Sequence record: PZ445530.1
Origin: a phage
DNA length: 64,000 nt
Reading direction: 5' to 3' (one strand)
Under the pieces are notes generated by a model that was not told where the DNA came from, made no database searches, and saw nothing but the letters and a program-made list of their open reading frames with translations. Positions 1-63,892 of the stretch are shown here, piece after piece. The translations under genes were made by a program, and so were the position numbers. Position 1 is the stretch's first letter; the number at the start of each line of letters is the position of its first letter.

Positions 1-88
1 TGATGACCTAGACTGGAGTCATTCTTCACCAGGATCATCTGCAAGTTCATATGATATCGTTGCTTTTCAGGAATAAGGAGAGGGTGTT

Positions 89-3455: not shown

Positions 3456-3513
3456 TGTTTAACAAAGAGTGGGAGGGGTAGTACAACCGCCTCCCCTTTA
3501 AGGAGAACTGTAT

Positions 3514-6779: not shown

Positions 6780-7133
6780 GATGAGTACCAACTTCAAGTC
6801 CCTGACACACCGAAGTATAAGACTGTGTACACCTTCGACACAATTGAAGAATTGGAAGCATTTAAGGCAGAGCAGGAGGCCAAACTTCATGTGTTCGACG
6901 GTCATAAGTACAAAAAGGCACGCAAGGATGAAAACGGAAACGAAGTGGTTGACAGAGACGGAAACACGGTGTACGATCCTATCTTGAACGATGACGGAAA
7001 GCTTGAACTTATCTGGAGTCCTGTGGGCGAAATGGTGGTACATTGCTTCTGGCAAGCTTCTAAAATGATGGGAGTCCCGTTCCAGATCACAGGTGAATAC
7101 TTGTGTGGTCGTAATTGGGGTGATTGTCACTAA
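6780..7133 (+). CDS. DNA polymerase family A, exon 2 (C-terminal part incl. motif C)
   Basis: splicing joins ...YYH to DEYQ... giving HDE; C-terminus ...GRNWGDCH resembles T7 pol ...GPNWAICH. Confidence 0.65.
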   Translation, partial: DEYQLQVPDTPKYKTVYTFDTIEELEAFKAEQEAKLHVFDGHKYKKARKDENGNEVVDRDGNTVYDPILNDDGKLELIWSPVGEMVVHCFWQASKMMGVPFQITGEYLCGRNWGDCH

Positions 7134-7182
7134 TGTAAACTATCAACACATGGAAGTGTTGTTGAGCAAAGAGGAGACTTTT

Positions 7183-7467
7183 ATGGTAGTAGAACCAACA
7201 AAAACATTTACATCTATGACTATCCCTGTTATTATGCAGGTGGAGTGTGTTCAGGTATCTCAAGTGTGGCCTGGTACCAAAATCCCAACAGGGCCTGATT
7301 TCTTTCAGGTTGGGAAAGTGTACAATGTCTGGAAGGCACCAGATTGTTACCCTTTCATCAAAGATGACCGTGGAATGTTGTGGTATCTTGGAAATGATTT
7401 GACACTGCACCTTGGGAATGTTATTATTGCAGTATTCAGACTTAACAAGAAGGAGACCGATCAATGA
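7183..7467 (+). CDS. hypothetical protein
   Basis: ATG preceded by AAAGAGGAG SD; inside longer track ORF 7093..7467. Confidence 0.45.
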   Translation: MVVEPTKTFTSMTIPVIMQVECVQVSQVWPGTKIPTGPDFFQVGKVYNVWKAPDCYPFIKDDRGMLWYLGNDLTLHLGNVIIAVFRLNKKETDQ

Positions 7468-7691
7468 CAACTTTGGTTAAAGCTACTTTTGTAGAAGAAA
7501 AGATGACAGACCTGTCATTCTTTAAAGAAGGAAAGACCTACGAGGTTTATTACGATAAAAATCGTGCAAACAAGATGATTAAAGACGAGGAAGGGATTGC
7601 CTGGTTTATCTCCCATCTGGCAAACGGTGAGTATCATATCTACGGAACCACCCTGCTTGCCAAGTTTGTAGCTGTAGAAGAGGACCTATGA
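7464..7691 (+). CDS. hypothetical protein
   Basis: 75-aa ORF, SD AAGGAG, overlaps upstream stop. Confidence 0.5.
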   Translation: MTTLVKATFVEEKMTDLSFFKEGKTYEVYYDKNRANKMIKDEEGIAWFISHLANGEYHIYGTTLLAKFVAVEEDL

Positions 7692-15086: not shown

Positions 15087-15119
15087 TACTTGAAAATTCC
15101 TGGCATATCAAGTGTAAGG

Positions 15120-15700
15120 GGGATTTCTAAAATGGATTTCCTCCTTTTGATATTTCACCGGGCTGGATATTTTAAAATTCTTAGAAAATCAGAAAATGGA
15201 TCGAAAACTAAAATGGATTTTTCAGAGTAGGCGCGACAAGCTGAATAACTCATCCTATCGTTTGCACCATATTCCAGGCCACCATTATAGATTTTCCACA
15301 CATGCTAACCTCCCTCTACTAGAACTTCCTCCACTTGCCCTTAACCTTCTATGGTAACAATCTAACCACTATCTTGAAGTTGCGGTGCAGCTTTCCAAGT
15401 ACTCGATCTGTTTTTCATTTCATGGCTTGGATTTTCTGAAAATTTTTCTCGATAAATTTCTCAGTACTCGATCTGTTTTTCGTTTTCTGAATCGGATTTT
15501 CTGGAAATCGTTCCGGATCTCGACCTGAAATTTTTGGGGACGAAATCGATTTTTCGTTTTCAGAAATGGATTTTTAAAATTTCTATATGGGAATATTTTA
15601 TGGGATACTGTTTTATAGGAAATTGTTACGGAGGGTAATTAGCATGCTAATTAAATTTATTAAATGCGAGGAGTTCTCATTTAGAATTTTGAATGATAAT
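15120..15700. repeat. AT-rich non-coding region with short direct repeats (AAATGGATTT x4, AGTACTCGATCTGTTTTTC x2)
   Basis: no ORF with SD; repeated motifs visible by eye. Confidence 0.5.
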
Positions 15701-15900
15701 CATTCTCGTTTGCAGAATAACGGGCAGGCCCGGTGATTGTCTCCCGGCCCCTGTTGCCCCGGCTTGTTATTATAGTATCACACAGGACAAAGAAAGCAAG
15801 GATTTTTTGCATAAATTTTTAAATGATAATGATAACCGTTCTCATTTTATGCAGCGCCCATCCCCGGTGGTTGTCTTCCCCGTCACCGGTGCCTGCCGTC
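15690..15900 (+). repeat. two copies of an ~80-nt element (AATGATAAT...TTCTC.TTT..GCAG... then GC-rich CCCGG tract)
   Basis: copy 1 ~15690-15770, copy 2 ~15820-15900; followed by three CCTGGCGGGGCC motifs (~15926, ~15989, 23100). Confidence 0.4.
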
Positions 15901-16114
15901 CTTTCGATAGGTATATTGTGCCACCTGGCGGGGCCGCTGTCAACACTTTTCAAAAAATTTTTCTAACCTGATGCGCTAACCGCTGCAACCTGGCGGGGCC
16001 AGCCTGGCAGGACCTAACTGACCAGGTAGGAGAGAATGAAGGCTTGTAAACCTGGTGGGCCTATGCTATAGGACAGGTAACAATTGAAGAGGAGGTACAA
16101 AAATAAAAGGTAAT

Positions 16115-16273
16115 ATGATCCCCCTGGAAAATGTAGCTATTAATGACGCTGAGGCTATCGCCCTGGTTGAAAAGGCCATGGCGGGAGCGTTGGAACATAA
16201 AGAAGAGTACGAAAAAATGATGGTTAACCTGGCAGGGCGGCGGCAGGTGGATTCTATCATAAAAATAATTTAA
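16115..16273 (+). CDS. hypothetical small protein (52 aa)
   Basis: ATG with AAGG SD 5 nt upstream; below ORF-track length cutoff. Confidence 0.35.
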   Translation: MIPLENVAINDAEAIALVEKAMAGALEHKEEYEKMMVNLAGRRQVDSIIKII

Positions 16274-16281
16274 AATAATTG

Positions 16282-16309
16282 TTGACAACCGGGGGAGTCC
16301 TGCTATTCT
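16282..16309 (+). promoter_or_regulatory. sigma70-type promoter
   Basis: TTGACA-16nt-TATTCT. Confidence 0.5.
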
Positions 16310-16361
16310 TACCCTACAAGGTGAACAACACCGCACTAACTAGTAAAGAGGATAAAAAATC

Positions 16362-16559
16362 ATGAACGCATACGGAATCAAAGTACGTCGCAACACTCGC
16401 CAGGTGGTCACCGATCAAGTGGTTTGCCTGGTGGATGTAACCATCAACAACGGGCAAGGCCTTTATAAATTTCGTCGCGGTCATAGCTATACCCTGCAAC
16501 AGCTTAATCGTTGCGCCCTGACAAAAGGTCAGATCAATCACTGGTTTAATAAAAAATAA
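16362..16559 (+). CDS. hypothetical protein
   Basis: 65-aa ORF, SD AAAGAGGA. Confidence 0.55.
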   Translation: MNAYGIKVRRNTRQVVTDQVVCLVDVTINNGQGLYKFRRGHSYTLQQLNRCALTKGQINHWFNKK

Positions 16560-16562
16560 GTA

Positions 16563-16591
16563 TTGACATACGCCCCGACACAAAATATACT
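16563..16591 (+). promoter_or_regulatory. sigma70-type promoter
   Basis: TTGACA-17nt-TATACT. Confidence 0.55.
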
Positions 16592-16623
16592 GAAATCACA
16601 AAAGACACTAAGAGGATAAAATC

Positions 16624-17022
16624 ATGAAAACCACAACCTTTAATTTTGACAATGCCGACTTCTCTTTTTCTGATGTCAAGAACTGCCGCCGTGATCGTGG
16701 ATTTTACAAGGCTTATAATCTGGTTGGCCTGGACGATGATAATAATTTGCACGAAGTAGCGGAGATCCGGTACTATGCCGCCGCCAGCGGTAACACTAAC
16801 TACTGCGTTTTTTGGATACACGACAACAAGAACAATAAGTACGGTTATACTGGCGGCAAGGCGAGCGGTCACGGTTATGATAAAGCTAACGCAGCACTTG
16901 AGAGCGCATTAAATGCTATGGGGATCACTGCCAACGGCTGGATCTACGAAGAAGAGTTTTTGTCGGCACTTGCTGACCACCTAGGCTATAAAAAGCACAT
17001 TGTAACATGTGCCCACGAATAA
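16624..17022 (+). CDS. hypothetical protein
   Basis: 132-aa ORF, SD AAGAGGA. Confidence 0.55.
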   Translation: MKTTTFNFDNADFSFSDVKNCRRDRGFYKAYNLVGLDDDNNLHEVAEIRYYAAASGNTNYCVFWIHDNKNNKYGYTGGKASGHGYDKANAALESALNAMGITANGWIYEEEFLSALADHLGYKKHIVTCAHE

Positions 17023-17029
17023 AAAATTA

Positions 17030-17057
17030 TTGACACGCTGCAAAATTCAAGTAAACT
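17030..17057 (+). promoter_or_regulatory. sigma70-type promoter followed by 5'UTR hairpin GGCGGGG-atgttt-CCCGCC (~17068-17086)
   Basis: TTGACA-16nt-TAAACT. Confidence 0.5.
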
Positions 17058-17105
17058 AGACACAAAAGGCGGGGATGTTTCCCGCCAGCACAAAGGAAAA
17101 AGATC

Positions 17106-17510
17106 ATGAATAAGAACGTACGCCGCATCATGAACGAACTGGCAAACGATGAAAAAATTATTGACATGCATTTATTCAACATTTGCCGCCGTTGTGTAAC
17201 ATATAACAACCGCGCCGCAAAAGCGCGTGAGATGAACGCAAAAGGCACCTTAAAGCCATTCCAGGTGGTGGTAAAGGCCATTAAAGATGTAACTAATACG
17301 GCAAACCAGGTACAGGGGAACACCAACGAGAGTACCAATATTGATCCGGCTTACATCATGAAACGGATCCGGACCTGCAAGAACAAAGAGCAAGTGTATA
17401 ATATCATAGACTGGTTGGATTCTATGGGCGATGTGGTTTACAATAGGTTTTCTGCAGCTATCGAGATCCAGCTTGACAGGTTGGACGGTAAAGTACTGAA
17501 AACTTACTAA
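17106..17510 (+). CDS. hypothetical protein
   Basis: 134-aa ORF, SD AAGGAAA. Confidence 0.55.
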   Translation: MNKNVRRIMNELANDEKIIDMHLFNICRRCVTYNNRAAKAREMNAKGTLKPFQVVVKAIKDVTNTANQVQGNTNESTNIDPAYIMKRIRTCKNKEQVYNIIDWLDSMGDVVYNRFSAAIEIQLDRLDGKVLKTY

Positions 17511-17512
17511 GT

Positions 17513-17560
17513 TTATTTTTAGATGGCCTTGACTTCAGGGCCATCAATAAAGTAAACTAA
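17513..17560 (+). repeat. repeated intergenic element containing hairpin GATGGCC-TTGACTTCA-GGGCCATC and promoter-like TTGACT/TAAACT (copy 1)
   Basis: near-identical copies at ~18134-18180 and ~21853-21898; variant at ~18472-18520. Confidence 0.55.
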
Positions 17561-17591
17561 TCTCAACTAAGCGAAAAAAGGGGGCTTTAAG

Positions 17592-17711
17592 ATGAGCACT
17601 ACACGCCAATACACAAAGGTAACTATTATCGTTTGCGTTGTCGGTTACATCCTGGCGCAAATGTTAATGAGTAGCGCTAACAGTTTTGCAAAATTTTTCT
17701 TAAATTTTTAA
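17592..17711 (+). CDS. small hydrophobic peptide (39 aa)
   Basis: ATG after AAGGGGG SD; TM-like TIIVCVVGYILAQMLM. Confidence 0.35.
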   Translation: MSTTRQYTKVTIIVCVVGYILAQMLMSSANSFAKFFLNF

Positions 17712-17739
17712 TTGACAAACTAACTTAGATCGATATACT
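17712..17739 (+). promoter_or_regulatory. sigma70-type promoter
   Basis: TTGACA-16nt-TATACT; hairpin GGGAAaactTCCC in 5'UTR. Confidence 0.55.
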
Positions 17740-17790
17740 TAAACACGTAAACGGGAAAACTTCCCAGAGCACACAAAAGGAGAAAACACC

Positions 17791-18132
17791 ATGACTACTA
17801 TGACCGCCGCAGAAAAAGCTATGCAGATCGCCGCGCTGAAAAAACAGATCGCAGACCTTGAGAACAAGATCGACAACTTTGAAATCGACGAGGACAAGTA
17901 CGACGAAAACTATGATGAATGGTTAGACGAGATCTACGGCGAAATTATGATCGGAAACATTTCTTTTCTTCCGTCGCGTATCCTCAAGGAGCTAGATCCT
18001 ATCGCTTACCGCTGCGGATTTAGCGACTACATCGACAGCCTGGATATTGAGGAAGATGAAGAATACCAGGAACTACAGACAGAGTTAGAAGAAGCAAAAG
18101 AAGAGCTTGCGGAGCTGGAAGAAAACGAGTAA
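17791..18132 (+). CDS. highly acidic coiled-coil protein
   Basis: 113 aa, about one third Asp/Glu; SD AAGGAGA. Confidence 0.55.
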   Translation: MTTMTAAEKAMQIAALKKQIADLENKIDNFEIDEDKYDENYDEWLDEIYGEIMIGNISFLPSRILKELDPIAYRCGFSDYIDSLDIEEDEEYQELQTELEEAKEELAELEENE

Positions 18133-18133
18133 G

Positions 18134-18180
18134 ATTATTTTTAGATGGCCTTGACTCCAGGGCCATCAATAAAGTAAACT
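18134..18180 (+). repeat. repeated hairpin/promoter-like element (copy 2)
   Basis: ATTATTTTTAGATGGCCTTGACTCCAGGGCCATCAATAAAGTAAACT. Confidence 0.55.
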
Positions 18181-18221
18181 TTATACTGTTAACACTGAAC
18201 TAATTCAGAGGAGTTAAAACC

Positions 18222-18467
18222 ATGGCAGCACTAATCACCAAATATTATGCCCCTACCAACACCAAAAGCGCCCGTATCATGGTAAAAGGCTTCGGACGTA
18301 AAAAGGTTTACACCTGGGATTATGCCTTAGACATGGAAGACAACTACACCAACGCGATGACCGATTTTATTAATGATCTGAACACGCGGATCTTGACAAA
18401 TTATAAAATTACCGATATTGCCTATATAGGGGAAGGCGGGATCTGTTTTGTCGGTATCGTCAAATAA
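18222..18467 (+). CDS. hypothetical protein
   Basis: 81-aa ORF, SD GAGGAG. Confidence 0.55.
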   Translation: MAALITKYYAPTNTKSARIMVKGFGRKKVYTWDYALDMEDNYTNAMTDFINDLNTRILTNYKITDIAYIGEGGICFVGIVK

Positions 18468-18542
18468 GCTGTTTTTTCGGTGGTCCTGGTAGCAGGGCCA
18501 TCTATAAAGATAGTTTATCAACACAATGAAAGGAGAAAGTAC

Positions 18543-18890
18543 ATGATCAGCGGGGCAAGTTTTATTATTGGCGCTATTGCTACGGCTTTAATTGTAAACA
18601 AGATCCAATCTAAAAACGAAAAAGAGAGCAACGCGCTCACAGAATACCCATTTTGGGTATTCAACGACAATGAAGACTACATTATCAAGTACAAGAATGA
18701 GAAGGGCGACCAGGTAACACCGCGACCGATCCCGGCCTACAAGATGCAAGAAACACTATACCGCCTAAAGGCTGGAGGCGCAAAAATCGTAGACTTTTGG
18801 GGATATGATTGCAAGGATCAGGAGGTTATAAAACGGCGTATCCGGGCTATTCAGGCCAATATTGAAGTTAGCAAGGGGGGGAATATATGA
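18543..18890 (+). CDS. putative membrane-anchored protein
   Basis: ATG after AAAGGAGAAAG SD; N-terminal TM SGASFIIGAIATALIV. Confidence 0.5.
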   Translation: MISGASFIIGAIATALIVNKIQSKNEKESNALTEYPFWVFNDNEDYIIKYKNEKGDQVTPRPIPAYKMQETLYRLKAGGAKIVDFWGYDCKDQEVIKRRIRAIQANIEVSKGGNI

Positions 18891-19084
18891 AGATTAATTT
18901 TGAGAAGATTGTAAAGCGATCTCATGATTCCGAAGAGCTGCCGGAACGACGCCAACGTAACAATAAACTGAATAAGCCAAAAAGATTTGGAAAGATCTGG
19001 CGAAATCATTATGATCGTAAATTGCCTGGCCTACTTTTGGAACGTGAACGACAGGCAGAACGATACCGCCATAAAGACAAATAA
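18887..19084 (+). CDS. small basic protein
   Basis: 65 aa, Arg/Lys-rich; start overlaps upstream stop. Confidence 0.45.
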   Translation: MKINFEKIVKRSHDSEELPERRQRNNKLNKPKRFGKIWRNHYDRKLPGLLLERERQAERYRHKDK

Positions 19085-19242
19085 CAACCAACGCCCCCGC
19101 CATTGTGCGGGGCTTTTTATTTCTATCCTACGAATAGCGCCCCTGGTTGGCCCTGTAAGCGCCAAAAAGGCCCCACCTATGCAATCGCCCCCTTTAACCT
19201 GAAAACATCGCCCAGGGCCGTTTCATGGCGTTAAAAATATCA

Positions 19243-19270
19243 TTGACATCGTCAACAGGTTAGCTATACT
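19243..19270 (+). promoter_or_regulatory. sigma70-type promoter
   Basis: TTGACA-16nt-TATACT. Confidence 0.55.
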
Positions 19271-19302
19271 AACCACATCAAAGAGAGAAAGGAGTAAACG
19301 CC

Positions 19303-19563
19303 ATGCGTAAATTAAAAAATTTTGATAAAGTTGATGTTGTCCTGAATAATTTTTACTACTGCAACAACAAGGCCATTTGGTGGCGTGATAGTTCCACCGA
19401 TAAAGTCAAGGCGCGCTTTCTCCAGGGGCACTGGCAAGGCCGCCCAGTGATTAAAATCATGGGGCAATTGGTAGCGTTTAAAAATTGCCGCCGTGTTGAT
19501 GACGTTGAGGAGATTTTAAACATTTTGCGCCACAATAATTTAAAAAATAGTGTTGACAAGTAA
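19303..19563 (+). CDS. hypothetical protein
   Basis: 86-aa ORF, SD AAAGGAG. Confidence 0.55.
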   Translation: MRKLKNFDKVDVVLNNFYYCNNKAIWWRDSSTDKVKARFLQGHWQGRPVIKIMGQLVAFKNCRRVDDVEEILNILRHNNLKNSVDK

Positions 19564-19580
19564 ATCTCAATAAGTATAAT
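19553..19580 (+). promoter_or_regulatory. sigma70 consensus promoter
   Basis: TTGACA-16nt-TATAAT; hairpin GGCGGG-aaaactta-CCGCC downstream. Confidence 0.6.
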
Positions 19581-19637
19581 TAAACACACAGGCGGGAAAA
19601 CTTACCGCCACTAACAAAGAAAACAGGAGAAAATATC

Positions 19638-20262
19638 ATGACCACCGTTAACATTACCACAGGTTACAATTTATCTTTCGACGTGCTGACCGATGAACAA
19701 AAAAGAAAAAGCTATTGAAATGGTCCGCGAAAGAGAAGAACACAGCGGGGATAACTTTTTTGCAGAAAGTGTAATTGAAGACTACAAAGAACATATCTTT
19801 CCAGAGTATGGCCTTGAAGATACCAAGGTACATTGGTCCGGCTTTTGGTGCCAGGGCGACGGCGCGTCAATCAGTGCGGAAAACGTGGATTTAGAAAAAT
19901 TCTTGCGTAAAGTCAAGTCTCTGACTAAATTCCGCTCAATTCGTCACTTGTTCGGCACAATGCACGATGGCGAGCTATCCGCAAGTGTTGAGCGTGATCC
20001 ATATAGCCGCTATAGTCACGAAAACACTGTAAGCGGGTACATCGATACTACATGGCTAGACCTGACAGCCAAGCAAGAAAGTAAGGTTGAAGAGCTGGAA
20101 GAGTTGATCACCGAGAACGTACGGGAACTATCCCGCAAGGTTTACGTAGACCTGGAGCAAGCTTATCTTGAACAATTTACTACCGAAAACCTGATCGGCC
20201 TTATCGAGGCCAATGATTGGCGGTTTGATGTGGATGAATATGGAGAGATGAGTTTTTCATAA
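19638..20262 (+). CDS. hypothetical protein; reading frame interrupted, needs a +1 shift in an A6 run (~19699-19704) or the sequence has a homopolymer indel
   Basis: promoter, hairpin and AGGAGA SD serve ATG 19638, which stops after 26 codons; long ORF 19693..20262 continues in +1 frame without its own SD. Confidence 0.4.
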
Positions 20263-20270
20263 ATAAAGTG

Positions 20271-20298
20271 TTGCAATAATCTAAAAACCTGCTATATT
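20271..20298 (+). promoter_or_regulatory. sigma70-type promoter
   Basis: TTGCAA-16nt-TATATT; hairpin GGGGCAA-gacgtt-TGCCCC downstream. Confidence 0.5.
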
Positions 20299-20352
20299 AA
20301 AACTCAAGGGGCAAGACGTTTGCCCCCCACACAAAACAAAGAGGAAAACATC

Positions 20353-20733
20353 ATGAAAAACACTACTAAAGCTATTGACACCGTCATGTTTAACCTGGTT
20401 ACCTTTCGCGAGGATATGAAAGATCTTCCACGTGAAACAGTGTGCGATCACATTGAAAACTATCGCAAACTAATCAAAGAGTTGCCTTTAAAACGTGATC
20501 AGTATGCGGCTAACGCCATGCTTAATGCCATGATCAAAAAGATGATCCAGTGTGATTTAACTCTGGCCTATGACTATGCGGGTGGTCGTTTTGCAGTATA
20601 CAATCAGCCCGTGCCCGGTATGGGCACCACCGAAGAATTGCACGCGTTAAATCTGAAGCAAGATGTATGGGATAACATGCCCCGCGTGGTGGTGTGGGCA
20701 GAAAGCGGAAAGATTTACGGCGATAATTTTTAA
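20353..20733 (+). CDS. hypothetical protein
   Basis: ATG after AAAGAGGAAAA SD. Confidence 0.55.
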   Translation: MKNTTKAIDTVMFNLVTFREDMKDLPRETVCDHIENYRKLIKELPLKRDQYAANAMLNAMIKKMIQCDLTLAYDYAGGRFAVYNQPVPGMGTTEELHALNLKQDVWDNMPRVVVWAESGKIYGDNF

Positions 20734-20797
20734 TCAGGTAACAGGCGGCATATTTGCCGCCTTATTGTTAAACAGAGCTGCAAAAGAGGTACATAGA

Positions 20798-21169
20798 ATG
20801 GAATTTATTATTTTGGCTGTAGTAGTTGCCTTGTTCAACGCCTGGATAGCTGGCAAAATAGGTAGATCCGCTTTTCTATGGTTTGTTATATCTATTTTCC
20901 TGGGAGTGGTTGCAACCATTGTACTAGTTATCCTTGCAATTGTTGACAAGGATAATAATAAGAAGGGTAAAGTATTTTCCGACCTGTATGACGCCCAAAC
21001 TTTTGTTAACGCCTATTATAGTGATCTTCCGGTCTCCTTGCGCTGCAGCCTGGCGCAACAAGTTTTTGATGAGGCTAAAACCAGAGATCAAGCCCATGAG
21101 ATATGTTTAACTGAGGCGGATCGCCTATTTGAGAGGAATAGAAAATATGTGGGCCAGCCGTTTAAATAA
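20798..21169 (+). CDS. putative membrane protein (2 TM)
   Basis: ATG after AAAGAGG SD; hydrophobic segments FIILAVVVALFNAWIAG and LWFVISIFLGVVATIVLVILAIV. Confidence 0.5.
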   Translation: MEFIILAVVVALFNAWIAGKIGRSAFLWFVISIFLGVVATIVLVILAIVDKDNNKKGKVFSDLYDAQTFVNAYYSDLPVSLRCSLAQQVFDEAKTRDQAHEICLTEADRLFERNRKYVGQPFK

Positions 21170-21392
21170 TACCACGTTAATTAATCCCTTTAGTGAAGAT
21201 TTGAAGCCAGCCGCCTGGCGTGATGGATTCAATAACGAACGCTTTATTTTCAAGCCTGATCTTGAGGAATTTTATAACAATGGATCGAACAACAGCGGAG
21301 ATAATTTTTCTTGGGATGTGCGTGGTGATGGTACTCCTGGGGGCCATTGTAAACCACGTCACTACTACCAGGAGGAAAGGGGGAGACGATGA
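21147..21392 (+). CDS. hypothetical protein
   Basis: ATG after GAGGAA SD. Confidence 0.4.
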   Translation: MWASRLNNTTLINPFSEDLKPAAWRDGFNNERFIFKPDLEEFYNNGSNNSGDNFSWDVRGDGTPGGHCKPRHYYQEERGRR

Positions 21393-21508
21393 CAACCAAG
21401 GATAAGCCCCGTACCGATAAGGCGCGCCGGGTTATGGTATGGCTTGAGATCATCGCCCTTGAAATATTGCTAGGCGTAGGGATGTACTTTATCGCTGTAA
21501 GTAACTAA
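21389..21508 (+). CDS. small membrane peptide (39 aa)
   Basis: ATGA overlap with upstream stop; GGAGG SD; hydrophobic C-terminal half. Confidence 0.35.
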   Translation: MTTKDKPRTDKARRVMVWLEIIALEILLGVGMYFIAVSN

Positions 21509-21563
21509 GAACGGCCCCCGATCATGGGGGCCTATCTTTTTAAAAAATTTCCCTTTCAGGGTG

Positions 21564-21591
21564 TTGCAATCCGGTCCGCAATATGGATAAT
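21564..21591 (+). promoter_or_regulatory. sigma70-type promoter
   Basis: TTGCAA-16nt-GATAAT; hairpin CGGGGaaacaTCCCCG downstream. Confidence 0.5.
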
Positions 21592-21650
21592 AACAATCAA
21601 CGGGGAAACATCCCCGCCACACAAACAAAAGCCCGAAGAGGAGAAAGAAG

Positions 21651-21850
21651 ATGAGCAACAATATCCGCGTTATTAACTTCAAAAAGAAGAAAAAATTGCC
21701 GTGCTGATTGACGGTCAAGAAATCTTCAAGGGCGACTATGAAGATCATCAAACGGCGATTAGTATCACTCGCGTGATTGGTTATCATAATTTCTACCCCC
21801 AAGGCGCTGAGGCAGCAGTTAAACGAATCAAAGAGATTGTAGGCCTGTAA
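21651..21850 (+). CDS. hypothetical 66-aa protein requiring a -1 shift at AAA-AAG (~21681-21687), or sequence indel
   Basis: ATG with GAGGAGAAAG SD stops after 18 codons; -1 frame continues ...EEKIAVLIDGQEIFKGDYEDH... to stop at 21850. Confidence 0.4.
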
Positions 21851-21852
21851 AA

Positions 21853-21898
21853 TTTATTTTTAGATGGCCTTGACTTCAGGGCCATCGATAAAGTAAAT
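21853..21898 (+). repeat. repeated hairpin/promoter-like element (copy 3)
   Basis: TTTATTTTTAGATGGCCTTGACTTCAGGGCCATCGATAAAGTAAAT. Confidence 0.55.
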
Positions 21899-21943
21899 TT
21901 AAACCCTGTTAAAATACCACGCAGTTAACAAGGAGTGATAGAC

Positions 21944-22243
21944 ATGTTTATCCAGGCTAATAATCTTTATTTCTTTGATGGTCAGATCGTAGATGGTGTG
22001 GAAGTGGAGATCACCGGGTGCCCTGGTGGTCAGGCTATGACTTTCCGGAATAATGCCTTTGATGATTCTCATATCGTTATGAGAATGGAAGTTACGAAGC
22101 TGGACGACAAGAAAACACTTATTGACTATTCTGTGAAAGATCATCCAGACTACCACATGATCTATGGTGATTTGTGCATTGTTGACCGTGACAAGGTGGG
22201 CGGCATTGTGATCGCTATTGTGAACGATGTTTTCTCAAACTAA
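21944..22243 (+). CDS. hypothetical protein
   Basis: ATG after AAGGAG SD. Confidence 0.55.
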   Translation: MFIQANNLYFFDGQIVDGVEVEITGCPGGQAMTFRNNAFDDSHIVMRMEVTKLDDKKTLIDYSVKDHPDYHMIYGDLCIVDRDKVGGIVIAIVNDVFSN

Positions 22244-22260
22244 TTTCAGCAGGTGATTTT

Positions 22261-22611
22261 ATGAAAGTAAAACTATATTACCTTAATGAGCTTAACCCCC
22301 TTGCCCAGGTCCGCGCCCTGGCTAATACCTTGATTTGTGAGAAATCTGTATATTGTGTTGAGCTTAACGCCATGCGTGAACGTCTCAAAGGTGGTTACTT
22401 TGACATCCATGCTGCAATCAACGGCCTGAATATGGAATTTATCCGCTTACGTAACAACAGCCGGAATCTGGCAAGAATGGAACAAGATCCGGCCCACCTT
22501 CGTAAGCTGGTTATTGAAAATCATCTGATGTTCAATGCCGAGGGTGATTATTACCATTTTCACCGCAAACGTTGGTACCGTGGCGGCAATACAAGCAAGA
22601 ATGCAAAATAA
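22261..22611 (+). CDS. hypothetical protein
   Basis: 116-aa ORF. Confidence 0.5.
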   Translation: MKVKLYYLNELNPLAQVRALANTLICEKSVYCVELNAMRERLKGGYFDIHAAINGLNMEFIRLRNNSRNLARMEQDPAHLRKLVIENHLMFNAEGDYYHFHRKRWYRGGNTSKNAK

Positions 22612-22729
22612 GGCCCCTAGCAGGGCCTGCAGCGATATAATCACATAAAGGCTATGCGGTTGCATGGCCTTTATTATTTTAGCGTTACAGCGACCCCTAA
22701 GGCGCTTAAAAAATTTTTTAAAGAAGTAC

Positions 22730-22757
22730 TTGCATCAAGCCCTACAGTATGGATAAT
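22730..22757 (+). promoter_or_regulatory. sigma70-type promoter
   Basis: TTGCAT-16nt-GATAAT; GC hairpin GGGGGGCGGCCCCC downstream. Confidence 0.45.
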
Positions 22758-22813
22758 AGGACGTGTCGGGGGGCGGCCCCCAATCATTAACCGGATAGAT
22801 AGGAGTTAAAACC

Positions 22814-23098
22814 ATGGCTATTGTTACCGCTGGCGATGTAGTAGAAATGGAAGCAAAATACTTAAAAGCGGGTATGCATATCCTACGCAACGATCTTGAA
22901 CTGGTCCTGACAATGGTTGACTATAACCCAGGGCAAGATTATCCAAGTGTTGACTACTTTTTTGAGTATGTTGATGAAGAATTAAAAGAGGATGAGGCTT
23001 ATCAGGGCGAATTCTGTAATTTCTTTTGCTCTGATGAGGTTGTAAAAGTTATCTATCAACCTGGCGTACCTTTCCCGCTGCACGCTATCAATAAATAA
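22814..23098 (+). CDS. hypothetical protein
   Basis: 94-aa ORF, SD TAGGAG. Confidence 0.55.
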   Translation: MAIVTAGDVVEMEAKYLKAGMHILRNDLELVLTMVDYNPGQDYPSVDYFFEYVDEELKEDEAYQGEFCNFFCSDEVVKVIYQPGVPFPLHAINK

Positions 23099-23154
23099 AC
23101 CTGGCGGGGCCGAAAAGGCCCCCCAATTATGAAAATAAAGAGAGGCAAATCATC

Positions 23155-23388
23155 ATGATGGAACAAATTAAACGCGCCGAGGCTATTAATGGCAACGTGA
23201 TCTATTTTGTCAGCAAAAACGAAAAAGGCGTACCCTATGCGGCTGTAATAGTACAGCCTGACGGCGATTATTGGTGCACTGTGTACGGCGCTTATTCTTT
23301 TGGGCGTCCAGTGCATGATAAAATTTTGAAAGTAGCGAACCCTACCGGGAAAAATATTACAGCAGAAAAATTTTTTGAAAAGTGTTGA
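23155..23388 (+). CDS. hypothetical protein
   Basis: 77-aa ORF, SD AGAGAGG. Confidence 0.55.
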   Translation: MMEQIKRAEAINGNVIYFVSKNEKGVPYAAVIVQPDGDYWCTVYGAYSFGRPVHDKILKVANPTGKNITAEKFFEKC

Positions 23389-23412
23389 CATGACCTTATA
23401 AGACTGTAGAAT
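23385..23412 (+). promoter_or_regulatory. sigma70-type promoter
   Basis: TTGACA-16nt-TAGAAT; hairpin GGGGGGC-aacaa-GCCCCCC downstream. Confidence 0.55.
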
Positions 23413-23466
23413 ATAAATCAAAGGGGGGCAACAAGCCCCCCACCAACCACAAAGAGGATAAAAATC

Positions 23467-23646
23467 ATGGCTATTATTGCAAAGACTGAGATCGTAGGCT
23501 TAGATTCTATTCTCCTCGCATATGAGGAAGCTATAGAAATGTATGTGGTTTCCTATGGTGAGTATATTCGTGAATATAAATCTATTGATCTGGCTTTTGA
23601 ATGTTATATTCGCCAGGTAAATAAAGCATATGATGATTATCGTTAA
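23467..23646 (+). CDS. hypothetical small protein (59 aa)
   Basis: ATG after AAAGAGGATAAAA SD; below track cutoff. Confidence 0.45.
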   Translation: MAIIAKTEIVGLDSILLAYEEAIEMYVVSYGEYIREYKSIDLAFECYIRQVNKAYDDYR

Positions 23647-23652
23647 AATAGT

Positions 23653-23680
23653 TTGACAACAATTACAAATCGGGTAGAAT
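23653..23680 (+). promoter_or_regulatory. sigma70-type promoter
   Basis: TTGACA-16nt-TAGAAT. Confidence 0.55.
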
Positions 23681-23731
23681 GTATTTCGTAGGGCGGCAAT
23701 GATGCCGCTCACAACTAAAAGAGAGATCATC

Positions 23732-23926
23732 ATGGCGCTTAAAAAACTAACAAGCAATACTCGTTGGGATGAAATCGACGGGGAAGTTTACATTTTTGCC
23801 CGTAAACCAGGGGATCAAAAATGGTCAAAGGCTTTTACTTGCCATCCTGCAACAATAGATCTGATAAAAAGTCAAGGACTACGTGAAGCAGTAGCAAGAA
23901 GTTTACTGATCCCTTGTAAAAATTAG
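23732..23926 (+). CDS. hypothetical protein
   Basis: ATG after AAAAGAGAG SD. Confidence 0.5.
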   Translation: MALKKLTSNTRWDEIDGEVYIFARKPGDQKWSKAFTCHPATIDLIKSQGLREAVARSLLIPCKN

Positions 23927-23927
23927 T

Positions 23928-23955
23928 TTGACAACAGTCAACAATCTGGTAAAGT
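23928..23955 (+). promoter_or_regulatory. sigma70-type promoter
   Basis: TTGACA-16nt-TAAAGT. Confidence 0.5.
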
Positions 23956-24003
23956 GTACTACATAGCGCGGGAATACTTCCCGCCATTAATGAGGGTAAT
24001 TTA

Positions 24004-24141
24004 ATGAAAACTTTCAACGCAACAGCCTCGACAATTGGTTATATTATTACAGTACAAGCCGTGGATCTGGTAGCAGCAGCAAACAAGATTAAAAAGATGA
24101 TTCCGCCAGGTAGTGAATTTTCCGTTTGGGAAGTAAAATAA
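24004..24141 (+). CDS. hypothetical small protein (45 aa)
   Basis: ATG after TGAGGG SD. Confidence 0.4.
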   Translation: MKTFNATASTIGYIITVQAVDLVAAANKIKKMIPPGSEFSVWEVK

Positions 24142-24144
24142 ATC

Positions 24145-24172
24145 TTGACAATAATTTATTACTTGATAGACT
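24145..24172 (+). promoter_or_regulatory. sigma70-type promoter
   Basis: TTGACA-16nt-TAGACT. Confidence 0.5.
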
Positions 24173-24224
24173 GTATTTCGTAGTGCGGGGAAATAAGGCA
24201 ACGCCCATTAATGAGGGTAGAATC

Positions 24225-24329
24225 ATGTTAGAGAAAATTTTCACGGTTGTAGTAGTTGGCCTGGCATTATCGGTTGGATGGGTTGCAACTATGGCTAACA
24301 TGATCCTATCTTCCCACGGTATCGGTTAA
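24225..24329 (+). CDS. small hydrophobic peptide (34 aa)
   Basis: ATG after TGAGGG SD; FTVVVVGLALSVGWVATMANMIL. Confidence 0.4.
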   Translation: MLEKIFTVVVVGLALSVGWVATMANMILSSHGIG

Positions 24330-24339
24330 GGTGAATCAA

Positions 24340-24555
24340 ATGATCACGAATAAAACAGGTAAAACGGAATTCTTGCGCGGCTTGCAGGTCGGCAAGCCTG
24401 AGATCTGGCATTGCACTAAAACACCACGTGACGAAATGAAAGACTTCACCGCCACGCTGCAACGGGTAAAGATATCCATTACGCAGAAAAAAGCCTTGAT
24501 AGTGGTGGAAGGTGAGATCCCTCAAGCCGTTGTTATAGTTGAGCGTACAGCATAG
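24340..24555 (+). CDS. hypothetical protein
   Basis: ATG after AAGGTGA SD. Confidence 0.45.
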   Translation: MITNKTGKTEFLRGLQVGKPEIWHCTKTPRDEMKDFTATLQRVKISITQKKALIVVEGEIPQAVVIVERTA

Positions 24556-24646
24556 TTTAATTTATACCGATACCCGAAAATTAACCAACAAAGCATAAAC
24601 AGGCGGTTGCCGCCGCCTTAAACGTAGCAGAAAGAGGATAGATACA

Positions 24647-24880
24647 ATGAAAAAGATGATCGCAGTAGTTGCCCTGGTTCTGGAAGAAGAAATTAAAGCC
24701 ATGCACCATAGCAACAGATTTATTGGTGACGCGCAGGATAATATGAAAGTATGCCGCCATAAAGTTAATGAAGTGCTTAAAGAGTACGGCTATAAAGATC
24801 TTATGATCAAACGTGAGGAAAAATTCCGCTACCGTAACGACCTGGCAAATCGGATTTTTGAAATATACGAATCATTATAA
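24647..24880 (+). CDS. hypothetical protein
   Basis: 77-aa ORF, SD AAAGAGGA. Confidence 0.55.
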   Translation: MKKMIAVVALVLEEEIKAMHHSNRFIGDAQDNMKVCRHKVNEVLKEYGYKDLMIKREEKFRYRNDLANRIFEIYESL

Positions 24881-24898
24881 TTTTTTAACTGAATTATC

Positions 24899-24923
24899 AA
24901 GGGGCTTAGGCCCCTTTCTTTTT
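24899..24923 (+). terminator. rho-independent terminator
   Basis: AAGGGGC-TTAG-GCCCCTT followed by TCTTTTTGT. Confidence 0.6.
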
Positions 24924-24930
24924 GTCTGCT

Positions 24931-27360
24931 CTTCTCCTACCATAAACGGCCCTACCTGGCAAGTGGAATAATTGACTAGCCATCAATCCCACATACTGTA
25001 CAAATATACATGGAAAATAACTATTGCATAATTTTTCATTGTGTGGTAGCAAGTCCATTTTTACCCGTTTTCTCTCCCAAAAGTGCACGTAATGCCGCTA
25101 TTGCACAAATTTTAACCTGATGCACATCTCCAATATCTTGTCAACAACTAAAAATCTTTATAAGTCATACACTTACACAGCATCGAAAGCGTGTTCTACG
25201 CGAAAAATCGAGTATAACTATAGCCGCCAGATCTCAGAATTCACGTACGCACGCCATTCTATAGCCTGCAAAGTATTTATTCCAACCACAGAATAACGGA
25301 ATAGTCAATACCTGCATAAAATAATTATTCGTGCAAACTGCATAACATAAATCAGCTCAGGTGTCAACATTTTTCGTAAACAGTCCGAAATTATAACGAT
25401 GAGTTATCATAAACAGAGAAATCTTTAGTCGTCTAATGTTTACTGTACATTACTATACTGACTGGAATCATTAGATGACTAAGAGAAAGATAAGAAATAA
25501 TTAATAATGTAATTATTTTACCTGTAACAATAAGGCAACTATGCAAACGAATGGCATGGCGCGACGGAGTCGCGACATAATATAAAAGCAGTAACCATCA
25601 CCCCCGTGATAGTTTGTCTGCAAACTATTAATCAGATCATAGTTGCCTTGTATTTAGTTAATCATGACATAACAAGCAAGGCAACTATAGATCTGCTAAT
25701 AGTTGCCCTGCTTTTATATTATGTCATGCTAATTATAATCAGTGCGATTATTGTCATGTATAATTATTGTCATGCAAACGAATGGCATGGCTGATTATCG
25801 GTGTGTAAACAGTCAATCATGTAAATGGTTAGCATGTGAACAATCAGGAATGTAAACAATCCAGTGTGTAAACTAATAGGTGTGTAAAAGTGTCATGTTG
25901 TGTCAGTTAGGTCACATTATGTCAGACAAGTTTTTCTCCTCTTTGTCAAGTGCTGCATGAAAAATTTACAAACTGGTATGGTAGCATTTTTGCGGCCCTG
26001 TTTACATTCAGTAATGTATGTATAATCCTTGTTGTGTGGGCGTTTAGACGTCTAGACGGTTGGAAGTCCACAGGTCAATATCTAATCTATCGGCTGCTAA
26101 CTATATCCCACACAAATAGCAAGAAATATGATTGTTATATGCGTAAACTGTAACTCATGTTATCAATCCCTGTATGGATCGCCAGTGGTGCGCATAATGG
26201 GTATTATGTTAAATTGCCCGTAATGATAACTATTCTCACAATGATAGGTATTCTCATTCATCCACATAAAATAGGTTGCAAATGTTGTGCCACTGTGTGA
26301 ACGGCCTGGCCTATTAATTTGCCTCACTGCCTTGATATTTGAGAATTGTTATAAGAATGAGAAGTATTCCCATTTCGTCCGCCTGGCAGCACTCCTGTAG
26401 GTCAGGTCAAAATCGTGGTAGAATTGGGCCTGTTCAGATATTTCTGGCTGACTCTTCAGGTCTGTGTGGGAAAAGCCAACCTCTCCGGCGGGGCAGGGGG
26501 TCATGACGGGAAAATTGCAGGTCAATTAAAAATTTACGTGGTGTATGAAGCGCTCTTCAGGTAAGGCATGTATTATGGGATGAAACCCGCTTCAGGCAAT
26601 GATATTTGTGGGTGTGATATTTGCTGGAAAGCCAGATATGACGGGACTCCCGGCGGGGATGGGGTAGTACAGACAGGGAAAATATGAGAATGTAGTTGGG
26701 GAAATTGATCAGACAGGTAGAGTATGGAATATGTTACAAGTATGTTAAATATGGAGGTTGAATATCTGTAGGATTTGTGTGTAAAATCAAAGACTTAAGG
26801 GGTGTTGTGGTATTTTCTATAAATAATTCAAGTTTAATAGGCAATATTTGTCTCTATCCGTTTTGTGTGGTAAACAGATTCAGATTAGATTGGTTTACAA
26901 GTGTATACATAATATACAAATTAAAGATACAAGAAACCCCCCTCCCCCCTTCGGCTACCATTCACCTTTTCCTCTGACTGGTACTTAAACACTTATTCAG
27001 ACTCTTCAGGTTATCACCCATATATCATATGGCAGTGACTGGTGTCCTCCGGCCCCTCTTTCGTCACCCGTCCGCTTCGCCATGCTAATGCCATAGCCAA
27101 TGGTTCGGTTGTTCACCCTGTTCACTCAGGTGTATCTCCATACCCCTTCAAACCGAAGAGAACAGAAAACCCGAATTACTCGGTAAAAGAAAAGAGAAGA
27201 ACTTAATTTTATCAGGATAGGCAAGAATGTCAAGGCATGACTGCTCACTAAACAAGCAAACAGTCATGTGTGGAAGGTAAGTGATTGTGGTGGTGGGAAA
27301 TTTAGTTGAAAGATGTGTTATAGGTGCTTCCAGCACTTTAGCCGGGCAGCTAATTGTGTG
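24931..27360. repeat. 2.4-kb AT-rich non-coding region dense in direct and inverted repeats
   Basis: no ORF with SD; 20-bp direct repeat ATGCAAACGAATGGCATGGC at ~25541 and ~25772; inverted GGCAACTAT/ATAGTTGCC; GTGTGTAAAC x3; CTCTTCAGG x4; CCGGCGGGG x2. Confidence 0.55.
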
Positions 27361-63726: not shown

Positions 63727-63801
63727 GCCCTGTTAGCTTAGTGGATAAAGCAGCGGCCTTCTAAGCCGTTGACACTGGTTCGAGTCCAGTACGGGGTGCC
63801 A
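63727..63801 (+). tRNA. tRNA-Arg (anticodon TCT), CCA encoded
   Basis: cloverleaf folded by hand: 7-bp acceptor, GCTT/AAGC D-stem, anticodon loop CTTCTAA, T-arm ACTGG-TTCGAGT-CCAGT. Confidence 0.75.
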
Positions 63802-63805
63802 AATT

Positions 63806-63892
63806 GGGGAGTTATCCCGTAGAGGTAGCGGTGTAGACTGTAAATCTATTGTCATTACGACTCGGGTGGTTCGACTCCACCACTTCCCACCA
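63806..63892 (+). tRNA. tRNA-Tyr (anticodon GTA), long variable arm, CCA encoded
   Basis: anticodon stem-loop GTAGA-CTGTAAA-TCTAT, T-arm GGTGG-TTCGACT-CCACC; close to E. coli tRNA-Tyr through anticodon and variable arms. Confidence 0.75.

Follow-up and report, generated by a model that had tools for sequence, protein, structure and literature searches.

Promoter-hairpin modules as putative protectors of early messages and recombination joints in a hyperplastic region of an rV5-like phage

The promoter-early stem-loop (PeSL) cassettes of T4-like phages combine a sigma70-like early promoter, an AT-rich upstream region in which the preceding gene's stop codon is located and a polyG/polyC stem-loop (PMC2839356). 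They have been described in the phages RB49/phi1, T4/PST and KVP40/nt-1 (Arbiol et al. 2010, PMC2839356; Comeau et al. 2014, PMC4122927), where they cluster in hyperplastic ORFan regions and give rise to indels, replacements and mini-circles (PMC2839356; PMC4122927). Their promoters are very strong in vivo, and the mini-circles arise through exchange between flanking motifs. A location "downstream of the -10" is one of five PeSL subclasses, and the stem-loop was interpreted as a terminator or attenuator of upstream transcription (PMC2839356). Hairpins of a different kind, the 5' stabilisers of the E. coli ompA and papA leaders, block RppH and the 5' sensor of RNase E (PMC3997798). Here we describe a series of promoter-hairpin modules in an island of small genes at positions 16100 to 24930 of a 64,000-nucleotide stretch of phage DNA (record PZ445530.1), the whole of which is referred to as the window. 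The PeSL cassette is the closest published system to these modules; its design is known, and the geometry observed here differs from it.

Megablast of the island matched 255 phage records, nearly all of which were labelled as Escherichia or Vequintavirinae-type phages. The top match was Escherichia phage A51.2 (96.6% identity, 97% coverage), and many Vequintavirus genomes matched at 92 to 94%. These matches indicated that the window is part of a Vequintavirus, an rV5-like myophage of E. coli. A total of 33 sigma70-type promoters and 20 terminators have been listed for the rV5 genome, and use of the host polymerase throughout was proposed (PMC3606486).

A preliminary description of this DNA had mapped 13 sigma70 promoters with a regular spacer of 16 to 17 nt to the island. 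All 13 were present, and the spacer was 16 nt long in 12 and 17 nt long in 1. Matches to TTGACA-16..18-TATAAT were scored out of 12 over positions 16061 to 24930 and compared with those in 300 dinucleotide shuffles. The earlier claim had been made to depend on the pattern standing out from shuffled sequence, and a distinct excess was detected. Matches of at least 10/12 numbered 11 on the + strand, with none on the - strand, compared to 1.71 ± 1.34 (maximum, 7) in the shuffles, while matches of at least 11/12 numbered 6 compared to 0.13. Addition of two TTGCAA promoters and one TTGCAT promoter to the scan matches produced the total of 13. The 25 nt upstream of the -35 had a mean AT content of 76% for these 13 promoters, and the -35 overlapped the upstream stop codon or was located 0 to 8 nt from it in 10 of them. 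Strong coding-strand promoters were found throughout the window, but those outside the island had mostly a 17-nt spacer; a 16-nt spacer was present in 9 of 11 strong island promoters and in 5 of 41 elsewhere in the window (p 2e-5). These results supported the interpretation of the island sites as host-type sigma70 promoters driving small ORFan genes. As the sites match the host sigma70 consensus, expression is likely to be early, in keeping with the early gene set originally proposed.

The same description had presented the island as about 25 autonomous single-gene cassettes, and this proved to be an overstatement. Between positions 16115 and 24880, 26 genes were called, all on the + strand, and about 16 of these had a promoter-like site of their own, consisting of one of the 13 promoters above (termed class A) or one of three promoter-like copies of a second element (termed class B and described below). 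The remaining 10 genes had neither element and were coupled or promoterless, and g09, g14, g15, g18 and g25 either overlapped the preceding gene or started no more than 17 nt after it. As there were only four canonical T-run terminators in the island (T1 to T4 in Table 1), most promoters must read into downstream genes.

A complete class A module was found to consist, in order, of an AT-rich tract overlapping the end of the upstream gene, the promoter TTGACA/TTGCAA-16 nt-TAnAnT, a linker of ~10 nt, a short hairpin whose 5' arm is G rich and whose 3' arm is C rich, a leader that is A/C rich and unpaired, a strong Shine-Dalgarno (SD) sequence and the ATG. In the case of eight promoters (P04, P11, P12, P16, P19, P21, P22 and P23), the GC hairpin started 9 to 12 nt downstream of the -10 hexamer, and the example given in the preliminary description, that of P04, was located exactly where it had been reported. 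Seven leaders, from the predicted +1 to the AUG, folded as a single 5'-proximal hairpin with energies of -10 to -17 kcal/mol and z scores of -2.0 to -3.7, and the remainder of each leader, including the SD sequence and the AUG, was unpaired. Hairpins linked to a promoter were detected at 5 of the 11 strong island promoters and at 0 of 41 elsewhere in the window (0/16 plus 0/25; Fisher p 1.8e-4), compared to 0.12 in shuffled sequences. The 5' arm was G rich, with a G:C ratio of 25:6.

The sequences flanking and forming the stems were counted in 81 distinct modules from the window and 12 loci. Within the first 8 nt beyond the stem, the mean numbers of residues were 1.15 for T, 4.36 for A, 1.94 for C and 0.56 for G, and four or more T residues were present in only 2 of the 81 modules; the corresponding number of T residues was 5 to 6 for T1 to T4, the genuine terminators. 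The hairpins cannot be efficient canonical terminators because they are located in the 5' leader of their own transcript and have no U-run, which agrees with the original placement of these hairpins in the 5' untranslated region; a promoter would be of no use to its gene if an efficient terminator separated the two. Among the 81 modules there were 39 distinct 5' arms, and every arm was still complementary to its partner. Similarly, stems were held while loops varied in alignments of orthologues, and the P12 stem exhibited a double change from A-T to G-C in two relatives, and a third relative had the intermediate G.T. The spacing of the hairpin to the -10 was tight (9 to 12 nt) and that to the ATG was loose (19 to 34 nt), which speaks for a function linked to the start of the transcript rather than to the upstream gene or to the ribosome-binding site. 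With a predicted +1 placed 6 to 8 nt after the -10, 2 to 5 unpaired nt would precede the stem in most modules.

A MAFFT alignment of 27 paralogous class A hairpins left the stems out of register because of their differing loop lengths. An Rfam scan of 15 to 27 kb of the window at an E value of ≤1 detected nothing above the gathering score, and its three matches, with E values of 0.1 to 0.9, were far below threshold. Antitermination RNAs of the lambda boxB/N type or the HK022 put type were rejected, as the hairpin is single and short and its loops (TAG, TAC, TGT, AAC, GTG, CTC and others) are not conserved. Terminators of antisense transcripts were judged unlikely, since T-rich tails on the - strand were present at only four to five modules and not in those with a GTATYACRTAG linker.

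Four of the features that define PeSLs were found in the island. Consensus sigma70 promoters were associated with an AT-rich upstream tract beginning at the stop codon of the previous gene; a polyG/polyC stem-loop was adjacent to the promoter and was followed by a CA-rich leader, GGAG/GAGG and the ATG; the location was a hyperplastic region of small ORFans; and the indel and replacement junctions of close relatives fell on the motifs. There were differences in lineage and in the position of the stem-loop. The phages with described PeSLs are members of the Straboviridae, whereas this phage belongs to the Vequintavirinae. In the RB49 PeSLs, which were inspected directly, the stem-loop is mostly in the spacer separating the -35 from the -10 or over the -10 and hence outside the transcript of the promoter, while the island stem-loop is 9 to 12 nt after the -10 and is predicted to be transcribed. 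As a result of this location, it would become the 5' end of the message. In the latter respect the modules would resemble the ompA and papA stabilisers, which have a stable stem-loop a few nucleotides from the 5' end (a predicted end in the present case) followed by an unstructured leader and a ribosome-binding site. However, those stabilisers belong to single host genes with long leaders, whereas the island hairpin recurs as a modular element at many genes of the phage. A search of the available literature yielded no paper linking PeSLs to rV5-like phages.

Junctions were mapped by blastn of 15 to 27 kb of the window against nine Vequintavirus relatives. Ten distinct indel or replacement events were detected inside the island. 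The modules make up 18.7% of the island and contained 13 of the 20 junction ends (binomial p 7e-6), and for 9 of the 10 events one or both ends lay in a module (p 4e-4). Homology overlaps of 7 to 56 nt were observed at the joints. In Alma and pangalan, g22 was absent and the P22 and P23 modules overlapped by 56 nt at the joint; in A51.2, g23 was absent with a 15-nt overlap between the P23 and P24 leaders; and in typing phage 14, both g22 and g23 were absent with a 22-nt overlap of P22 and P24. An extra cassette of 282 nt was inserted exactly at the P10 -35 in S127 BCL3, and an unrelated gene replaced g21 in JEP1, from the P21 -35, which formed the left joint, to the start of P22. Overall, the P22 module was a recombination joint in five relatives, and the P23 and P24 modules also acted as joints. 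The crossover points were scattered over the upstream (UP)/-35 region, the hairpin and the SD region, a distribution that fits homologous exchange between repeats rather than exchange at one specific site.

A further joint was observed within coding sequence. The g26 gene (24647 to 24880) is a fusion of the start of one gene with the end of another, the intervening stretch having been lost in the window, and its PHROG match spans only residues 67 to 139 of 139. All nine relatives carried an extra 0.9 to 2.2 kb, comprising several genes, at this point, and in most of them the extra stretch lay between two copies of a 15- to 19-nt repeat (24661 to 24679 in the window) which encodes an N-terminal segment of the MKKMIAVVAL type. 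A 19-nt motif, GGyTGTAGTAGTTGsCyTG (family D14), was common to the N-terminal hydrophobic segments of g13, g24 and g26 (20815 to 20833, 24245 to 24263 and 24658 to 24676, respectively). As one copy of D14 is the joint of the g26 fusion, short repeats in coding sequence appear to act as recombination substrates as well.

On balance, and with some reserve, we consider it probable that this is a hyperplastic early region of an rV5-like phage organised by PeSL-like modules, in which a 5' hairpin protects the early mRNAs and the modules form the recombination joints. The combination of promoter and hairpin probably gives each message a protected 5' end. The match to consensus suggests that host RNA polymerase would fire the island promoters right after infection. 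From the geometry of the module, the hairpin would then be the first structure of the mRNA, ~2 to 5 nt from the predicted 5' end. RppH and RNase E require single-stranded 5' ends, so that 5' structures stabilise mRNA (PMC3997798), and the hairpin would for this reason lengthen the life of early messages. Under these rules of E. coli mRNA decay it would hinder RppH and 5'-end-dependent RNase E, with short early messages lasting longer, and the open A-rich leader and the SD sequence would favour translation. Finally, the comparison of relatives showed that homologous recombination between the modules, which are repeated sequences of 50 to 90 bp, deletes, inserts or replaces whole units of promoter and gene. 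Protection by a 5' hairpin would be especially useful if the phage speeds the decay of host mRNA. The Srd protein of T4 activates RNase E on host mRNA (PMC4980113), and gp11 of rV5, the gene for which lies outside this window, has been reported as Srd-like (PMC3606486).

Several observations weigh against the favoured explanation. The preliminary description had placed a hairpin behind each promoter, but this held clearly for only 7 to 8 of the 13; the hairpin was weak or degenerate at P02, P06 and P24 and missing at P03 and P10. Conversely, three to four similar GC hairpins had no promoter (H13, H20 and H26, in the intergenic spaces before g13, g20 and g26, and the hairpin ahead of T3), indicating that a boundary hairpin does not always need a 5' end. 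The literature yielded no start sites, half-lives or cleavage sites for any member of the Vequintavirinae, and the +1 is a predicted position. With the earliest plausible start, some leaders, such as that of P23, would have 5 to 7 unpaired nt ahead of the stem, a number which reportedly exceeds the tolerance of 5' stabilisers in work on ompA. The strand-folding test favoured the + strand only weakly (32 versus 16), with sequences that were not independent and G.U counts that were uninformative. Most of the recombination events clustered in the very similar P21 to P24 modules. Lastly, a PeSL stem-loop placed between a promoter and lacZ reduced expression as strongly as rrnB T1 (PMC2839356), which means that such hairpins can attenuate.

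The main rival explanation, which is supported by this lacZ result, in which the PeSL stem-loop acted as a strong terminator (PMC2839356), holds that the hairpins serve as attenuators or insulators, a role suggested for PeSLs. They would partly stop or pause upstream transcription and so prevent a pile-up along tandem promoters, the upstream message would gain a protective 3' hairpin, and the position behind the next promoter would be incidental. Of the 20 intergenic spaces of at least 54 nt, about 16 contained a hairpin of some kind, including three without a promoter, and the annotators of Alma, EdH4 and Murica named such sites terminators. Strong termination would, however, also kill the transcript of the hairpin's own promoter, as the hairpin lies between that promoter and the gene which it serves. 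The stem is followed by A-rich sequence and not by a U-tract, the real T-run terminators of the island lie upstream of promoters and not downstream, and an upstream-acting terminator does not require the fixed distance to the -10 described above. We regard this explanation as rather unlikely on its own. The two roles are not exclusive, as a single hairpin might cap the 5' end of its own transcript and also act as a 3' barrier to the one arriving from upstream.

The remaining explanations dispense with a role for the hairpin in RNA. The hairpins could act as DNA, with inverted repeats centred near +12/+13 serving as repressor operators for early shut-off or as sites at which a site-specific recombinase moves cassettes in the way of an integron. 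The palindrome is centred at the place that lacO1 occupies relative to its promoter. A free central spacer of 3 nt, as in GCGGGAA-NNN-TTCCCGC, is typical of protein-binding palindromes, copies within a genome can be very alike (GGGCGGCAATGGTGCCGC occurs six times in ESCO37), and the PeSL authors speculated on a recombination protein. One sequence-specific protein would nevertheless not tolerate 39 different 5' arms that are all self-complementary, and the conserved G.T wobbles of GGGCGGCA/TGCCGCTC break the symmetry of a duplex palindrome. Furthermore, the G-first, C-second polarity is strand specific and the spread of crossovers points to homologous rather than site-specific exchange, so that action as DNA seemed very improbable. 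Only marginally better is the prospect that the hairpin has no function of its own and that the unit of promoter, hairpin and SD sequence is a repeat which has been spread and homogenised by recombination, hitch-hiking with useful promoters. Recombination at the modules was demonstrated, and the families were alike well beyond the functional hexamers (68 to 77% for D2 and 70% for D7), with the P22 module being 95.9% identical in Justusliebigvirus phages. Simple hitch-hiking does not account for the retention of the same linker length and hairpin behind unrelated linkers (A-rich versus GTATYACRTAG), for loops which drift while stems are held with compensatory changes or for the persistence of the module in three phage groups in at least 81 distinct versions. 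The protective 5' hairpin remained the explanation which we favoured.

A second structured element, class B, was detected in the island. It is a 51-nt repeat with four copies, each of which begins at the stop codon of the preceding gene, and it folds as one long hairpin, in which an A/U-rich lower stem of 10 bp is joined through a 2/3-nt internal loop to a GC-rich upper stem of 10 bp that ends in a 4-nt loop. The energies ranged from -25 to -30 kcal/mol, with z scores of -3.7 to -5.6. Covariation was examined in 22 distinct copies from the window and the nine relatives. Pairing was retained in 98.2% of cells, compared to 35 to 55% when the partner was slid by 1 to 3 columns; four pairs of the lower stem were altered on both sides, and every one-sided change in the upper stem was to or from G.U. 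As G.U pairs become C.A mismatches on the other strand, the selected structure lies on the + strand, that is, in the sense RNA. Close copies were found at three per genome in about 121 Vequintavirus records, and the Rfam scan of 15 to 27 kb produced no match. Class B is hence, as judged by its conservation and pairing, a well-supported structured RNA outside Rfam. The sequence at 23084 to 23102, which runs from the end of g19 into the beginning of the H20 spacer (GCTATCAATAAATAAACCT), was 79% identical to the 3' half of class B (family D5) and may be the remnant of a former copy.

In RNase III substrates, which span about two helical turns, internal loops confine the cut to a single strand, and the hairpin that is left protects the 3' end (PMC1540722). 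For this reason, class B is a probable, putative site of RNase III-type processing or 3'-end stabilisation in read-through RNA. The RNase III signals of T7 early mRNA (R0.3 to R1.3, of which R1.1 is a model substrate; PMC1540722) are likewise intercistronic elements of a polycistronic early phage region, and signals of the R1.1 type share with class B an extent of about two helical turns (10 plus 10 bp in class B) and an asymmetric internal loop. Class B differs from them in having no sequence similarity to these signals and in carrying promoter-like hexamers. These hexamers raised the alternative that class B elements are primarily promoters with the -35 inside a palindromic operator, as in the PeSL subclass "stem-loop overlapping the -35," and not RNA processing sites. 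Three of the four copies, and all of the nine relatives, retained the arrangement TTGACT/TTGACA-18 nt-TAAACT/TAAATT, g05, g07 and g17 had no other promoter, and a stem-loop within the promoter is common in the PeSLs of RB49. The match is only 9/12, however, with a non-optimal 18-nt spacer, and the variant copy at 18465 to 18515 held the full 20-bp structure, through G.U pairs and compensatory changes, with no promoter-like hexamers. The covariation of the lower stem and the G.U-type changes of the upper stem also point to selection on the + strand only. A primary function as a promoter is thus doubtful, but the two roles could coexist and class B possibly doubles as a promoter in three copies.

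Table 1. Positions of the island, its promoters, hairpins and terminators, the class B elements and g09. Numbering is that of the window; promoter and class A module entries begin at the first base of the -35.
Feature	Position	Strand	Fold energy, score or remark
Variable (hyperplastic) early-gene island, genes g01 to g26	16100..24930	+	26 small genes, 34 to 207 aa; counterpart of rv5_gp199..gp171
P02, TTGACA-16-TATTCT, weak 4-bp hairpin (16320-16332)	16282..16332	+	-4.4 kcal/mol, z -0.66
P03, TTGACA-17-TATACT, no hairpin	16563..16591	+	
P04 module, TTGACA-16-TAAACT, 10-nt linker, hairpin GGCGGGGA/TTCCCGCC (17068-17086)	17030..17086	+	-14.1 kcal/mol, z -2.58
Class B copy 1, from g04 stop codon; TTGACT apical, TAAACT 18 nt downstream	17508..17558	+	-28.7 kcal/mol, z -5.0
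P06 module, TTGACA-16-TATACT, weak hairpin GGGAA/TTCCC (17753-17765)	17712..17765	+	-5.9 kcal/mol, z -1.0
Class B copy 2, after g06	18130..18180	+	z -3.7
Class B variant copy (69%), after g07	18465..18515	+	-27 kcal/mol, z -4.8
g09, Phage_1_1 (T7 gene 1.1 protein)	18887..19084	+	Pfam E 2.2e-11, 44.5 bits vs cutoff 21
T1, canonical intrinsic terminator, CCCCGC..GCGGGG then CTTTTTATTT	19095..19120	+	
P10, TTGACA-16-TATACT, no hairpin	19243..19270	+	
P11 module, TTGACA-16-TATAAT (12/12), hairpin (19591-19609)	19553..19609	+	-10 kcal/mol, z -3.7
P12 module, TTGCAA-16-TATATT, hairpin GGGGCAAG/TTTGCCCC (20308-20326)	20271..20326	+	-12.1 kcal/mol, z -2.4
H13, promoterless GC hairpin between g12 and g13	20743..20762	+	
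T2, canonical terminator	21513..21542	+	
P16 module, TTGCAA-16-GATAAT, hairpin (21601-21616)	21564..21616	+	-11.9 kcal/mol, z -3.3
Class B copy 3, after g16	21849..21899	+	-29.6 kcal/mol, z -5.6
Hairpin (22611-22628), then T3, canonical terminator (22645-22674 plus T-run)	22611..22682	+	
P19 module, TTGCAT-16-GATAAT, hairpin GGGGG/CCCCC (22768-22781)	22730..22781	+	centroid -11.3 kcal/mol; z not significant (GC-rich leader)
H20, promoterless GC hairpin between g19 and g20	23106..23122	+	-19 kcal/mol, z -2.8
P21 module, TTGACA-16-TAGAAT, hairpin G6C/GC6 (23423-23441)	23385..23441	+	-17.2 kcal/mol, z -3.6
P22 module (family D2), TTGACA-16-TAGAAT, hairpin GGGCGGCA/TGCCGCTC (23691-23710)	23653..23710	+	-14.9 kcal/mol, z -3.2
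P23 module, TTGACA-16-TAAAGT, hairpin GCGGGAA/TTCCCGC (23968-23984)	23928..23984	+	-12.2 kcal/mol, z -2.0
P24 module, TTGACA-16-TAGACT, degenerate hairpin (~24185)	24145..24206	+	z +0.16
H26, promoterless GC hairpin upstream of g26	24601..24618	+	
T4, canonical terminator, closes island	24899..24924	+	

The class A module was also found in other large phages, Phapecoctavirus among them, and, judged by these sequence matches, crosses phage families. In phAPEC8 and ESCO37 (Stephanstirmvirinae), a hairpin was present at 16 of 27 strong promoters in the very regular arrangement TTGACA-16-TAAnAT-GTATYACRTAG-GGGCGGCA-ATGG-TGCCGCTC-ACAA..GAGA..ATCATG. In the jumbo phage PBECO4 (Asteriusvirus), modules of the form AAGTACTTGCAA-16-TATAAT-GTTTTACATCGAG-GCGGGAA-NNN-TTCCCGC preceded small genes. 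The same order of promoter, linker, hairpin and SD sequence was observed before at least 10 small genes at 1350 to 7500 of this 348-kb genome, which also carries homologues of island genes, with ~70% DNA identity to g12 and others.

Some of these sites already carry labels in GenBank. Terminators 16, 18 and 19 of Alma are the hairpins of P04, P11 and H13, and the label "terminator" is also used for these sites in EdH4 and Murica. In the phAPEC8 record, the sigma70 part is a "host dependent promoter (MEME)" and the hairpin 20-mer directly behind it is a "promoter determined with PHIRE." The labels "terminator" and "phage promoter" are probably both wrong for these hairpins, with consequences for the annotation of such genomes. 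The composite of promoter and 5' hairpin, its restriction to the island and its role as a joint were not described in the main text of the rV5 paper or in the GenBank annotations. The promoters as such were already known from the rV5 paper. Added to this are the geometry of a hairpin predicted to be transcribed as the 5' end, with which the PeSL principle would also cover rV5-like coliphages and large coliphages related to them, and the uncatalogued structured intercistronic RNA of class B. The PeSL counterpart, the role in recombination, the class B hairpin and the existing labels had all been overlooked in the preliminary description.

If these interpretations are correct, the PeSL principle is not peculiar to T4-like phages, and modules that both express and shuffle ORFans would belong to the general design of large coliphages with a virulent life style. 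Nearly the same module is present in at least three further lineages. The hairpin-first geometry would provide a directly testable link between early phage expression and host decay by RNase E and RppH. It would also supply compact parts for synthetic biology, in which a strong promoter, a putative stabilising 5' hairpin and an open ribosome-binding site occupy about 80 bp. A more far-reaching idea, which we consider unlikely, is that the hairpin and its conserved initial transcribed sequence (GTATYACRTAG followed by GGGCGGC.. or GCGGGAA..) form a "5' tag" shared by the early mRNAs of unrelated groups of large coliphages (Vequintavirinae, Stephanstirmvirinae and the jumbo Asteriusvirus). Such a tag might let phage messages escape a decay which the phage itself unleashes by Srd-type activation of RNase E and, in combination with class B sites, might produce monocistronic messages protected at both ends. 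It would then amount to a modular system for marking self and non-self mRNA that travels with the gene cassettes.

The products of the island genes had few recognisable relatives, as had been noted previously. In annotated relatives, this stretch is a row of "hypothetical protein" genes, from rv5_gp199 down to gp171. A Pfam search with all 26 products detected a match above the cutoff for g09 alone, the remaining matches being below it. Each of the 26 products matched a separate PHROG, all of which are of "unknown function," and even the membrane peptides of 34 to 39 aa are for this reason conserved genes. The isoelectric points ranged from 4.1 to 10.6 and five products had a transmembrane-like segment, in agreement with the acidic, basic and small membrane proteins described before. 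A sequence search of the Protein Data Bank with four larger products (g03, g04, g11 and g12) yielded no match. The family of g11, the largest product, had a confident AlphaFold model (predicted local distance difference test score, 86.5), for which no solved structural relative was found. With 25 of the 26 proteins lacking an annotated family, the host-takeover or anti-defence role suggested in the preliminary description is a hypothetical one. The impression that the island is richer in GC than its flanks was not borne out, as its GC content was 0.424 compared to 0.442 on the left and 0.426 on the right.

Differences in the length of poly-A tracts broke the frames of two genes. The g11 gene had A6 (19699 to 19704) where all nine relatives had A5, and g16 had A5 (21681 to 21685) where all nine had A6. 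These breaks represent either sequencing or assembly errors at poly-A tracts or two real pseudogenes in this isolate. Island ORFans of 60 to 120 aa were named "DNA translocase," "30S ribosomal protein S2," "phosphoribosylpyrophosphate synthetase" or "putative holin" in some relatives, and these names are probably annotation artefacts. Furthermore, 23 GenBank records (MG0656xx) named "Campylobacter phage," with Campylobacter jejuni as the host, were 93 to 95% identical to the island and look like mislabelled or contaminating sequence of an rV5-like coliphage.

The flanks of the island were rich in repeats. Directly upstream, about 1 kb (15090 to 16060) had no convincing ORFs and contained direct repeats at a spacing of 65 to 74 nt (15389 to 15574) as well as a 17-nt repeat at 15919 and 15984. 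This region is the counterpart of a "non-coding" box on the rV5 map (PMC3606486) and is a possible origin or other cis-acting region. Downstream, gene blocks of the + and - strands converged in an AT-rich region (24930 to 27000; GC content, 0.38) with 34-nt repeats 60 nt apart (25623 and 25683) and an 18-nt tandem repeat at 26222 to 26256. Near the end of the window, genes for tRNA-Arg(tct) and tRNA-Tyr(gta) were located on the + strand at 63727 to 63892 and adjoined a cluster of seven strong + strand promoters at 60 to 64 kb.

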